6,095 nucleotides of DNA, from the IMG/VR virus record IMGVR_UViG_2534682255_000031; one strand, given 5' to 3'. A program made the position numbers and the translations under genes. Below, in pieces: positions 1 through 2,519 of this stretch (the first letter of the stretch is position 1; every line of letters begins with the position of its first letter). The DNA is from a virus (taxonomy: Duplodnaviria > Heunggongvirae > Uroviricota > Caudoviricetes). Below the pieces are notes generated by a model. It was not told where the DNA came from and ran no database searches. It saw nothing but the letters and a program-made list of their open reading frames with translations.

Positions 1-957
1 ATGTTAAAGATAATACCCGGTGCAACAGGATACTTTAATAAAACACTCAATTCAAATCAATTCGATAATGAAGATGCAATCAAAGGTAAAGTAAATAGTA
101 TATATGGTAAATCTATTGATTATTCAACGATGCGTCATCGGGATATAATTATTGCAAAAATAGATTTATTTATTCAAAGAATCACTCATAATTTATGGAC
201 TGCACGTGAAAAAAATGTGACGTTAATTAAGCAAATAAACGATCTCAAAATGTGTGTCAATGAGTATATTGGAGATTGTACTGATGAGGAATTAAACGAT
301 CGTGAATTTATTGCATCAGTTGTTGACAGGGCTATTTTTCATTTCGCGATTAATAGTATATGTAATCCCGAGGATAATAAAGATGCGACACTCATAGAAC
401 GATGTACTTTTGATGTAGAAACCAAGAATGGTCTTCCCTCCACGGTTCAGCTATTTTATGAGGAATCTAAAGATAATGAACCTTTAGCGAATATACATTT
501 GCAAGCAATAGGTTCTGGTTTCTTAACGTTTGTTAATGCCTGCCAGGAACATGATGACAACAGCTTAAAATTATTTGCTTCGCTGTTAATTTCCCTTTCA
601 TATTCTAGTGTCTACTCAGATTTTGCAGGAAGAGTGAATATTAATGAATATAATGATAACTACCTGAAAGCTCAGTTTGAAGAATTATCTCAACGTGATA
701 TGAAGAAGTACCTGGGAGAGATGAAGCGTCTGGCAGATGGGGGAGAAATGAATTTTGATGGCTATCTGGATAAGATGTCACATCTGGTGAATGAAGGAAC
801 GCTCGCCCCTGATATTTTAAGCAAAATGCGAGATGCTGCACCGAAATTAATTGACTTTGCTAAGTCGTTTGACCCAAACTCAAAGGAAAAGATTAAAATA
901 TATACAGGCACTTCTAAATTAATTTATGATTTATTCGGGGTTAAATCGGAGAAATAA
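1..957 (+). CDS. Hypothetical protein, 318 aa, strongly AT-rich; function unknown; may be 5'-partial because the ORF begins at the first base of the window
   Basis: Uninterrupted 957-nt reading frame in DNA of about 28-30% GC (hand count of 1-60 and 601-660), where random stops would be frequent. TAA stop at 955-957 is followed by an intrinsic terminator. No catalytic motif recognised by eye (no Walker A, no clear HEPN or HD motif). Confidence 0.6.
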
Positions 958-994
958 TATGTGAAGTTCTTCGATGGTATGAAAGGTATTACAT

Positions 995-1028
995 AAAAGA
1001 ACCCAATGTTTATTGGGTTCTTTTTTTC
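995..1028 (+). terminator. Rho-independent terminator downstream of the AT-rich ORF
   Basis: Perfect 10-bp stem AGAACCCAAT (998-1007) / ATTGGGTTCT (1012-1021) with loop GTTT, followed by a T-run to 1027; an A-run precedes it, so it may work in both directions. Confidence 0.75.
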
Positions 1029-1531
1029 TCTATCAGTGCTATTAGCAGGGAGAGATATCACCGGAGTTTAATGTGTGATTTTTATTTATCGTCGAATCTG
1101 TATTGTTTATCATTGCTTTTCACAACGCTAACATCTAATAAGATTAGATATTCACTTCGTGAGAGCTTCATGCCTTGAGAGGATCTCAATTTTCTTTTGC
1201 AATGAGACAGGCGCTTCCTGTTGTTATGGTATAGTACCCCGTTATTGAGCCTCCTGAACAGTGATGCTGAATAACATAACCACATGATATATCGATAAAA
1301 TAATCTCTACATTTGAAAATGCACGGTAATTCTGAAATGCAAAAAATCAACCAAACCAGCGCAATGCCTGAAAAAACTGACGTTCACTGGAGTGGTCGGT
1401 TTAGCGTTGCACCAATGCTCGATAGGATGTACCGTTTTTGAAAAACAAATAGTTATATACTTTGTGGGAGCCTATTGGGAACCCGGCGTTTTCATTTCAA
1501 GGTGTAATCCATACGCGGCTTAAGAATGAGA

Positions 1532-1537
1532 TATAAT
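1532..1537 (+). promoter_or_regulatory. Candidate -10 hexamer (TATAAT) upstream of the GNAT-like ORF
   Basis: Exact TATAAT at 1532-1537, about 30 nt upstream of the start codon; no convincing -35 at 16-18 bp spacing. Confidence 0.25.
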
Positions 1538-1566
1538 GCGACTTTTAGTGTTCCGCTTGAGAGGCC

Positions 1567-2103
1567 ATGATGCTTACCCTGGACGAGATAGGTCAATCAG
1601 TACGTAACAATATCCAGTTGATTATTGATCATGTCGGCTTACCTCTTGCTGTTGGTCCGCTCAGTGATGATGATTACAAGATTCTGTGTGGTGGCTATGG
1701 TGAGCTTGAATGGGACTATGCGTTAAGTACCTATGGCAACTCCAGAGAAAAGTATGAGTTCTGCATAAAACTTGTTCAGCAAGGTCGGGTTCAGGGAATA
1801 CCATCAGGAGCAGCAATTTGTGTTTATGGGGTTGAAGAAAACATCTTTCGTATCCATATGATCGAAAGGTTTTCTAGAGAAGATGAATCTCACCCATTGA
1901 AAGGGCGCATGGTTTTACTCACTCTTATGAGTGCTTTTATATTTTGTAAAGCTGTTGAATGTAAAGTTGTCCACATTGTAGAGCCAGTACCAGAACTGGT
2001 GCAGTATTACGAGTCTTTTGGTTTCCGCATGGAACAGTGCGGTTATGTGATGTCGGCAGTCATTGATGAGCTGCAGGATATCTTTCTTAAATTTGCTCAG
2101 TAG
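1567..2103 (+). CDS. Hypothetical protein, 177-178 aa, with a possible divergent GNAT-fold acyltransferase C-terminus; probable start at the second ATG (1570)
   Basis: GAGG at 1561-1564 is 5 nt upstream of ATG 1570. The C-terminal segment KGRMVLLTLMSAF...VVHIVEPVPELVQYYESFGF resembles the GNAT beta4-alpha3 and Y-x-x-x-GF region, but the canonical Q/R-x-x-G-x-G/A acetyl-CoA motif is not intact. Confidence 0.55.
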   Translation: MMLTLDEIGQSVRNNIQLIIDHVGLPLAVGPLSDDDYKILCGGYGELEWDYALSTYGNSREKYEFCIKLVQQGRVQGIPSGAAICVYGVEENIFRIHMIERFSREDESHPLKGRMVLLTLMSAFIFCKAVECKVVHIVEPVPELVQYYESFGFRMEQCGYVMSAVIDELQDIFLKFAQ

Positions 2104-2208
2104 GTATAGACGAGAAGGGTCTACAAATTGTAGGATACCCGTCCAGATTACCTTAAAGGTACATCTATGGCAGTCGTTTTGTGCTTAAACTACTAAGAAA
2201 CGATGTCA

Positions 2209-2229
2209 CCAATCGACATGATCGATTGG
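2209..2229. promoter_or_regulatory. Inverted repeat (8-bp arms, 5-nt spacer) upstream of the small ORF; possible operator or RNA hairpin
   Basis: CCAATCGA (2209-2216) - CATGA - TCGATTGG (2222-2229), perfect arms. Confidence 0.3.
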
Positions 2230-2299
2230 CATAAGTTAGCGAAACAAGCTAGCTTTAAAGAAAGGGTTAGAGACGCCTTTACTGTCTCGGGAGTTTTCT

Positions 2300-2473
2300 A
2301 TGAAAGATCAAAAAGCAACCAAGCCACAGGTTAAGTTCGACACAATGAAAGCATTCGCAGGTATGGGTGCTGCTGTTGAAGTTCTGATGAAGGCTGCTCC
2401 TAATGCGTTCACTCACGCTACTGTCTCTGGTAAAGAGCAGCAGGGTAAGCTTCGTCGTCGCAAAGCAGCATGA
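2300..2473 (+). CDS. Small lysine-rich protein, 57 aa (MKDQKATKPQVKFDTMKAFAGMGAAVEVLMKAAPNAFTHATVSGKEQQGKLRRRKAA); not in the supplied ORF track
   Basis: GGGAG at 2288-2292 lies 7 nt upstream of ATG 2300; TGA at 2471-2473 is followed 20 nt later by a strong terminator; basic C-terminal tail RRRKAA. Confidence 0.6.
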   Translation: MKDQKATKPQVKFDTMKAFAGMGAAVEVLMKAAPNAFTHATVSGKEQQGKLRRRKAA

Positions 2474-2488
2474 TCATAGCTGGTGCTT

Positions 2489-2519
2489 TTTGAAAACCCG
2501 CCTTCAGGCGGGTTTTTTC
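2489..2519. terminator. Bidirectional rho-independent terminator between the convergent small ORF (+) and xis-like gene (-)
   Basis: Perfect 10-bp stem AAAACCCGCC (2493-2502) / GGCGGGTTTT (2507-2516), loop TTCA; T-run on the + strand and TTTTCAAAAAG on the - strand after the stem. Confidence 0.8.

Follow-up and report, generated by a model that had tools for sequence, protein, structure and literature searches.

A conserved two-gene cassette at a dusA prophage junction of Escherichia coli O157:H7 as a candidate variant of GNAT-based toxin-antitoxin or defence systems

The 6,095-nt stretch of DNA held in IMG/VR as virus record IMGVR_UViG_2534682255_000031, which is referred to as the window in the following, is a piece of the Escherichia coli O157:H7 chromosome (100% identity to many complete O157 genomes), and within its positions 1-2519 host DNA passes into the left end of a small prophage integrated in dusA. 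An initial annotation had interpreted the three plus-strand open reading frames (ORFs) of this region, ORF1, ORF2, and ORF3, as one AT-rich accessory module standing in the place of an integrase. The ORFs lie where they had been placed (Table 1), but the region is almost certainly composed of host DNA up to position 1422 and of prophage DNA from 1423 on, so that one third of the supposed module is host DNA. This near-certainty applies jointly to the composite nature of the region, the classification of the element as a ~10.8-kb remnant, the attachment (att) core, and the placement of the integrase (int) and excisionase (xis) genes. The structural part of the locus is ordinary. The cassette formed by ORF2 and ORF3 exists as a conserved, uncharacterised unit and can reasonably be proposed as a new variant of the toxin-antitoxin (TA) or defence systems that are based on GNAT proteins. 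The combination of a composite structure, a mobile cassette, and a TA- or defence-like mechanism is the best explanation of the locus as a whole and is considered fairly probable.

The boundary between host and prophage is defined at the level of single nucleotides. Positions 1-1422 align end to end with yjbL-yjbM-dusA' of E. coli K-12 (91.2% identity) and with the corresponding region of O157 Sakai (99.93%), and the homology of both strains to the window stops exactly at 1422; in either strain the dusA site is empty, with zur-yjbLM-dusA-pspG being contiguous. From position 1316 on (1316-3191), the window is 98.4% identical to the functional lambdoid phage mEp460 (NC_019716), the element's closest sequenced relative, including the phage genes gp23, gp24, and gp25. 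Absent from the earlier reading were a truncated dusA 5′ end (1319-1422, with the stop codon at 1439-1441), which upon base-by-base comparison equals K-12 dusA letter for letter and is labelled a partial tRNA-dihydrouridine synthase (1319-1423) in RefSeq, and a 27-bp att core. The core is found at 1396-1422 of the window and again at 32251-32277 of one O157 genome (L001), and it falls within dusA codons 26-35. A three-way alignment of attL, attR, and attP revealed that mEp460 attP corresponds to the left arm of attR plus the right arm of attL, and the intact dusA at attR carries a phage-type 5′ end matching mEp460 attP.

The absence of an integrase from the window was noted correctly in the initial annotation; nevertheless, the integrase is, with the confidence stated above, not replaced by anything. 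An intact tyrosine integrase of 365 aa is encoded at the far end of the element, outside the window (L001 30988-32085, minus strand), 88 bp from dusA, and is 98% identical to that of mEp460. In mEp460, dinI and int point leftward and are followed by attP, the rightward genes gp23 and gp24, and the leftward excisionase and exonuclease genes; gp25, the counterpart of the xis-like gene of the window, is annotated as excisionase. In the circular phage, int is situated downstream of xis on the same strand, with attP and the two plus-strand cargo genes in between, and integration carries int to attR, while xis and the cargo stay at attL. It is because attP lies between int and xis that integration parts the two genes; in the O157 element, int sits ~10 kb from xis, at attR beside the rebuilt dusA. 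The "missing integrase" is, consequently, explained by the position of attP in lambdoid phages that integrate at dusA, where it separates xis from int.

The order of genes in L001 summarizes this arrangement: zur, the DUF2713 gene (ORF1), and partial dusA are followed by two hypothetical genes (ORF2 and ORF3), the PrtN-family gene that had been designated xis-like, truncated early-left phage genes, a tail-tip fragment, lom, tail-fibre genes, three DUF1076 genes, dinI, the tyrosine integrase, directly after that the intact dusA, and pspG. There is next to no doubt that the element is a ~10.8-kb deletion remnant of an mEp460-like lambdoid prophage with a dusA-associated tyrosine integrase. Its deletion junction, at ~5380-5384, fuses an N-terminally truncated early-left DUF2303 gene to the C-terminal part of a tail-tip (J-like) gene; in comparison with mEp460, genes for immunity, replication, lysis, head, and most of the tail are lacking, and several of the remaining ones are truncated or interrupted. 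In published dusA-associated integrase islands, the 5′ end of dusA is replaced and the original 5′ end is displaced to the far junction; their att repeats are 21 bp long and semiconserved, and 64% of the islands contain prtN homologues (Farrugia et al. 2015; PMC4482086). The O157 element is similar in that it is inserted in the 5′ end of dusA between direct att repeats (27 bp, exact), in that the phage donates a new dusA 5′ end while the original one of the host is left at the distal junction, and in that it has a tyrosine integrase beside the rebuilt dusA, a prtN-family gene, and an empty site in related strains.

ORF1 is host flank and not part of the element, since it lies on the host side of the att core and is also found where a strain has no insertion in dusA. 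It is the single-gene form of K-12 yjbL plus yjbM at the same place between zur and dusA; the gene is split in K-12 but unsplit in O157. ORF1 had been included among three proteins that by eye matched no known family, which is true for ORF2 and ORF3 (Pfam, NCBIfam, and PADLOC; for ORF2 also PDB profiles) but not for ORF1, a member of DUF2713, to which neither Pfam nor NCBIfam assigns a function. Part of the region 1-2519 was matched in 4378 of 5426 complete E. coli genomes, only 332 of which cover at least 80% of it, and ORF2 together with ORF3 is found in 357 genomes versus the ~4400 with a match to some part; for the chromosomal ORF1, co-occurrence with the other two genes, as a single module would have it, therefore does not hold. 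The low GC content and deviating composition attributed to all three genes hold for ORF1 only, which has 34.1% GC rather than the ~30% given before (29% is found in the first 300 nt only). ORF2 (41.9%) and ORF3 (47.7%) have values like those of xis (42.6%) and of the remaining phage genes in the early operon (45.7%). Similarly, a terminator-like hairpin does follow ORF1 and ORF3 but was not found directly 3′ of ORF2. ORF1 matches two PHROG families, which is best explained by prophage predictions that overshoot the attL boundary.

The homologues of ORF1 are 69-92% identical and 318-340 aa long, and their sources name all of them E. coli, except for one partial Klebsiella pneumoniae entry. The length range is due to the varying copy number of a 10-residue repeat, DATKDKLDNx, of which yjbLM alleles carry zero, one, or two copies and the O157 allele none (repeat site at window 61-110, protein residues ~24-27). 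Between strains, the protein is no more than 80-92% identical, and yjbLM appears to evolve fast and to be all but confined to E. coli. An AlphaFold2 (AF2) prediction of ORF1 from an alignment of E. coli homologues only did not yield a usable structure (predicted local distance difference test score, pLDDT, 43.4), as the alignment, with all members at least 86% identical, was too shallow. K-12 and several other genomes carry a split or frameshifted copy.

ORF2 and ORF3, by comparison, travel together. In every examined locus with a relative of ORF2, a relative of ORF3 is located 77-196 nt downstream on the same strand; the sample comprises tens of loci, is not exhaustive, and represents about ten unrelated contexts. 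Even the most distant ORF2 relatives (26-32% identity) are followed by basic ORFs of 50-58 aa. The pairing is asymmetric, with ORF2 never occurring without ORF3, while ORF3 occurs without ORF2 in ~200 E. coli genomes. Among enterics, ORF3 is conserved to 88-98% versus 66-89% for ORF2. Strict co-occurrence in unrelated contexts, with the putative toxin never being alone, is expected of two-gene conflict cassettes, and this is what was found. Very probably, ORF2 and ORF3 constitute an autonomous, horizontally mobile two-gene cassette (moron) that encodes a divergent acyltransferase of GNAT fold together with its obligatory partner, a basic protein of ~55 aa.

The contexts of the pair are diverse. 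It occupies the dusA slot in E. coli, Salmonella, and mEp460, and in Salmonella the order ORF2-ORF3-xis is kept while the host flank is a TraF_2 gene instead of the DUF2713 gene. Directly after the Q antiterminator gene and before methylase or lysis genes, it is found in prophages of Citrobacter-type, Enterobacter, Franconibacter, and Hafnia genomes and in phage Eeyore. Further locations are a P2-like Edwardsiella prophage, where the replication region lies on one side of the pair and the portal/terminase genes on the other; a Brenneria prophage, directly 3′ of the CI repressor gene; a tail/baseplate cluster of Photorhabdus; Xenorhabdus kozodoii (L020 5105-11434), where one glyoxalase-family ORF separates the pair from downstream type I-E cas3-cse1; and Shewanella. 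In Hafnia (L044-L047, 650-1609), a RelA_SpoT-domain gene, which matches the PADLOC candidate defence gene PDC-S33 (1e-112), is located directly upstream of the pair, ahead of holin genes.

The dusA slot itself is variable. In ~200 E. coli genomes (L029-L031, L009) and in phage Lys8385Vzw, it contains a Panacea-domain gene, a 128/139-aa gene without a Pfam family, and then ORF3, with ORF2 missing; in PhiR40_1, a YafO-toxin pair is present without ORF3. The different cargo of mEp460, Lys8385Vzw, and PhiR40_1 between attP and xis fits a phage moron, as does the terminator at 2492-2517, and the initial assumption of accessory cargo at a prophage end is appropriate for ORF2 and ORF3, whose slot is used by TA-type cassettes in sister phages, but not for ORF1.

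The ORF2 protein has two possible start codons, at 1567 (178 aa) and 1570 (177 aa), of which the latter is favoured by NCBI and by the homologues. With an isoelectric point (pI) of 4.8 it is acidic. An AF2 model based on an alignment of 32 homologues (pLDDT 92.7; predicted template modelling score 0.89) predicts a GNAT fold with the succession beta1-alpha1-alpha2-beta2-4-alpha3-beta5-alpha4-beta6, whereby the earlier designation as GNAT-like is borne out at the level of the modelled fold. At the sequence level the affiliation is not apparent. ORF2 has no Pfam or NCBIfam match at E≤1, ten distant relatives have no Pfam match either, and a search of the family profile against PDB sequences did not retrieve a GNAT chain at E≤10, the only matches being spurious ones to gp41 and armadillo-repeat designs. 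The PHROG families matched by ORF2 and ORF3 are both of "unknown function". An exhaustive profile search among 1.84 billion cluster representatives returned 93 at E≤1e-3. Two residues, W49 and Y148, do not vary in any of 34 family members with identities down to 16%, and Y148 lies within the motif-B-like sequence Y148-x-x-F-G-F. The tyrosine of motif B is the general acid in many GNATs, and Y148 may have this catalytic role. The loop preceding alpha3 reads H109-P-L-K-G113-R-M115, which is not the canonical Q/R-x-x-G-x-G/A of motif A; it is invariant in close relatives of ORF2 and degenerate in distant ones.

ORF3 encodes a protein of 57 aa, the basic nature of which (pI 10.5; 9 Lys and 3 Arg) had been recognized initially. 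The family core is FDT..F..MGAAVEVL.KAAP.AF....QQGK.RRRKAA, with ...QGKxRRxKAA as the typical C terminus. A basic tail ending in -AA is present in the translated close and intermediate homologues save three Photorhabdus proteins (-VA), and the two most distant ORF3-like partners end in -KA and -KK. This tail may be a ClpX-type degron or protease tag. ORF3 had also been considered as a membrane peptide toxin, which was rejected upon inspection by eye, its central segment being Ala-rich, with Glu and Lys, and not strongly hydrophobic. A 43-aa ORF (2203-2334, plus strand) overlaps the start of ORF3 in another frame; neither of the two has a match in Pfam, NCBIfam, or PADLOC. In the E. coli entries P0060 and P0065 and in Salmonella (L021 3405-3674), the 43-aa ORF is joined in frame to ORF3, resulting in proteins of 87-89 aa. 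This N-terminal extension is probably not functional because it is not conserved in more distant taxa.

The spacer between ORF2 and ORF3 contains, in enterobacterial loci, the conserved block TTGTAGGAT at 2128-2136 and two inverted repeats with variable loops, ACCAATCG-N7-CGATTGG at 2208-2229 and AAGTTAGC-N7-GCTAGCTT at 2233-2255. A GAGAC/GTCTC repeat (2270-2288) is located just ahead of the Shine-Dalgarno (SD) sequence of ORF3, GGGAG (2289-2293). RNAalifold analysis of the spacer identified a pair of conserved elements, either hairpins or inverted repeats, whose stems are conserved in sequence and show no compensatory changes, so that a protein operator and an RNA hairpin fit equally well. 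The blocks could represent a promoter/operator or a structured leader for ORF3. A search of Rfam at permissive thresholds gave sub-threshold matches only, centred on the terminator hairpin.

With regard to function, the favoured though tentative reading of the pair is a GNAT-toxin/antitoxin-like or abortive-infection module expressed in the lysogen, with chances somewhat short of even. With acetyl-CoA as cosubstrate, ORF2 would modify some component of the cell, for which analogy suggests the translation machinery, and ORF3 would restrain ORF2, probably by means of its helix and its Lys/Arg-rich tail. Transcription in the lysogen would start at the captured host dusA promoter and read through the dusA stub, while ORF3 may have a promoter of its own in the spacer; in the free phage, the cassette would likewise be driven by a dusA-mimic promoter that belongs to the phage itself. 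ORF2 starts 126 nt beyond the stop codon of the dusA stub, and these 126 nt are non-coding phage DNA. No terminator-like site was found from the yjbM terminator (995-1024) to the start of ORF2 (1570), so that the host dusA promoter should read into the cassette. Between the start of ORF2 and the ORF3/xis terminator, the only plus-strand terminator-like site is a weak 5-bp stem inside ORF2 (1920-1933). The TA-like interpretation is suggested by the asymmetric distribution, ORF2 never being alone and ORF3 sometimes, and by the opposite charges of the two proteins. It is also consistent with the invariant motif-B-like tyrosine and with the company of the pair, namely the TA cassettes that use its slot in other phages, the defence-related genes next to it, and its placement at sites expressed in the lysogen.

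Several points weigh against this interpretation. In known GNAT toxin systems, a ribbon-helix-helix (RHH; DUF1778) antitoxin is encoded upstream and usually overlaps the toxin gene, while the partner of ORF2 is encoded downstream, beyond a spacer of 77-196 nt, and its sequence reveals neither an RHH/DUF1778 nor another DNA-binding domain; classical type II TA systems have neither this gene order nor so long a spacer. The fold matches of ORF2 are generic, and acetyl-CoA binding is open to doubt because HPLKGRM stands for Q/RxxGxG/A. ORF3 may have a separate role, since it is kept beside the PanA/PanT-like pair without ORF2. A promoter scan of 1025-1566 did not reveal a strong sigma-70 match, the matches being no more than in shuffled sequence. 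PADLOC-DB v2 contains no match for ORF1, ORF2, ORF3, or the distant ORF2 relatives, and literature searches yielded framework papers but nothing on gp23/gp24-like proteins.

Among the alternatives, it is conceivable, though rather unlikely, that the pair is a non-toxic lysogenic-conversion unit, in which the GNAT protein would acetylate a small molecule (antibiotic, bacteriocin, or polyamine) or a host protein to the benefit of the lysogen and ORF3 would be a regulator, a cofactor, or a substrate switched by acetylation. Most GNATs retrieved with the fold of ORF2 are indeed detoxifying or protein-modifying enzymes (SpeG, AAC(6'), RimI, Nat) and not toxins, and ORF3, with its Lys and Arg residues, would be a plausible acetyl acceptor. 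Additionally, the Xenorhabdus pair adjoins a gene of the glyoxalase/bleomycin-resistance family, and the lysogen-expressed placement after cI and downstream of the dusA promoter would suit a conversion unit. GNATs of the resistance type are, however, normally solitary, which leaves the strict association with a small basic partner over about ten contexts unexplained, and the repeated placement at TA/defence hotspots fits a conflict system better. A pair encoding a ribosomally synthesized and post-translationally modified peptide (RiPP) precursor together with its GNAT was discarded, as neither maturation nor export genes accompany the pair in the loci viewed. Less likely than lysogenic conversion is a counter-defence or host-takeover module of the phage, acetylating and thereby inactivating a host immunity or repair component during infection or induction. 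The location directly after Q in many lambdoid prophages, and hence late-gene transcription, would be in line with such a function, and GNAT-fold proteins are common in viruses; such genes, however, are usually early, while the cassette is found at late or lysogenic positions. Moreover, the pair also occurs outside recognisable intact phages, by cas genes and at chromosomal sites that are phage-free on the examined side, and it is kept in the O157 deletion remnant, which is no longer able to make particles.

That ORF3 would be an independent phage backbone gene hitch-hiking beside ORF2, with the latter being a solitary moron, is improbable. This assumption would account for the persistence of ORF3 in the dusA slot when PanA and the 128/139-aa gene take the place of ORF2, for its far higher conservation among enterics, and for a spacer whose conserved inverted repeats could house a separate promoter. 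It is disfavoured because a hitch-hiker would not outlast so much rearrangement: the pair survives in contexts sharing nothing else (P2-like prophage, Mu/P2-type tail cluster, cas-adjacent site, Shewanella), and small basic ORFs are still present 3′ of the relatives with 26-32% identity. Finally, one accessory system of ORF1, ORF2, and ORF3 in the place of the integrase has hardly any probability left. The three genes are adjacent and on the same strand, and ORF1 is AT-rich and of unassigned function in Pfam and NCBIfam; against this stand its position beyond the att core, its presence where the dusA site is empty, the occurrence of ORF2-ORF3 without ORF1 in Salmonella, the unequal numbers of genomes given above, and the integrase at attR.

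The TA- or defence-like interpretation can be compared with several known systems. In GNAT-toxin systems of the TacAT/AtaRT type, the toxin halts growth through acetylation of aminoacyl-tRNA and is neutralised by its partner. With the type II systems TacAT, AtaRT, ItaRT, and KacAT, the pair shares the architecture of a small, mobile two-gene cassette coding for an acidic enzyme and a basic small partner, as well as a conserved motif-B-like tyrosine. It differs from GNAT toxins in that ORF2 has no detectable sequence similarity to them or to any Pfam GNAT family and in its non-canonical acetyl-CoA loop. The lambda rexAB genes and the old/tin hotspot genes of P2 are exclusion morons expressed in the lysogen. 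The pair is like these in its presence/absence polymorphism, its own terminator, and its lysogen-transcribed positions (after cI in Brenneria; P2-like prophage in Edwardsiella); it is unlike them in having no sequence or fold relation to them and in that its defence role is putative. Positional analogues are the PanA/PanT and YafO-type cassettes, which sister phages at dusA carry between attP and xis with unchanged orientation; for PanA/PanT as a family, the TA function has been validated by experiment (Kurata et al. 2022; PMC8832971). Their proteins belong to families unrelated to those of the ORF2-ORF3 cassette, and the PanA variant keeps ORF3 downstream, while the YafO variant is without it.

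ORF2 represents a GNAT-fold family that was overlooked by curated profile libraries, has a very small basic protein as its constant companion in the loci examined, and recurs at phage TA/defence sites. If the pair is a TA or defence pair, it would represent a new partner architecture for GNAT toxins, with a downstream, non-RHH partner and a long structured spacer; it would be one more prophage-encoded immunity system in E. coli, Salmonella, and other Enterobacterales, and the slot between dusA attL and xis would be a useful hotspot to mine. It is possible, albeit doubtful, that the pair is the first example of a conflict system in temperate phages that is missing from the catalogues and has two components, a sequence-orphan GNAT-fold effector and a labile basic inhibitor or sensor of ~55 aa, which would protect the lysogen by abortive infection or in a TA-type manner and which, in dusA phages, would be switched on by the captured dusA promoter.

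The features of the region are compiled in Table 1. Of the elements reported initially, the xis-like gene at 2521-2802 and, as a terminator-like hairpin, the bidirectional terminator between ORF3 and xis were both confirmed.

Table 1. Features at the left junction of the dusA-inserted prophage remnant (window coordinates).
Feature	Position	Strand	Evidence
ORF1, host yjbL/yjbM, unsplit (DUF2713, 318 aa), outside the prophage	1-957	+	PF10897, 1.4e-143; collinear with K-12 and Sakai
Intrinsic-terminator-like hairpin 3′ of ORF1	995-1024	+	13-bp stem and T-run; fold -18.1 kcal/mol
Displaced original host dusA 5′ end	1319-1441	+	1319-1422 identical to K-12 dusA; stop codon 1439-1441 in phage DNA
attL core, 27-bp exact direct repeat TCGGTTTAGCGTTGCACCAATGCTCGA	1396-1422	.	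Longest exact attL/attR match; break of K-12/Sakai homology at 1422
Variable cargo slot between attL and xis, left end of prophage	1423-2519	+	98-99% identity to mEp460
ORF2, acidic 177-aa protein, predicted GNAT fold, phrog_4350, mEp460 gp23	1570-2103	+	
ORF2-ORF3 spacer with conserved blocks	2104-2299	+	Alignments of enterobacterial loci
ORF3, basic 57-aa protein, phrog_2741, mEp460 gp24	2300-2473	+	phrog_2741, 8e-36; good SD sequence
Convergent terminator common to ORF3 and xis	2492-2517	.	11-bp GC-rich stem; T-run on plus strand, TTTT on minus strand
PrtN-family gene, putative excisionase, last in the leftward early operon	2521-2802	-	PF11112, 4e-23; phrog_1300 "excisionase", 8e-40

Some further observations concern the remnant. 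On its minus strand, two early genes are decayed, coding for a 3′-5′ exonuclease without its N terminus and a SAM-dependent methyltransferase with an internal stop (2839-3198 and 3491-3964, respectively); RefSeq calls both of them pseudogenes. To the right of the window (L001 26160-30517), lom, tail-fibre genes, and three DUF1076 genes are kept; DUF1076 corresponds to the type III effector family NleG. The remnant could have been retained through selection for cargo of the lom/tail-fibre/DUF1076 type. Within O157:H7, the remnant at dusA is polymorphic, with the site of Sakai being empty (L040, 5113631-5115987) and many other O157 genomes carrying the element.

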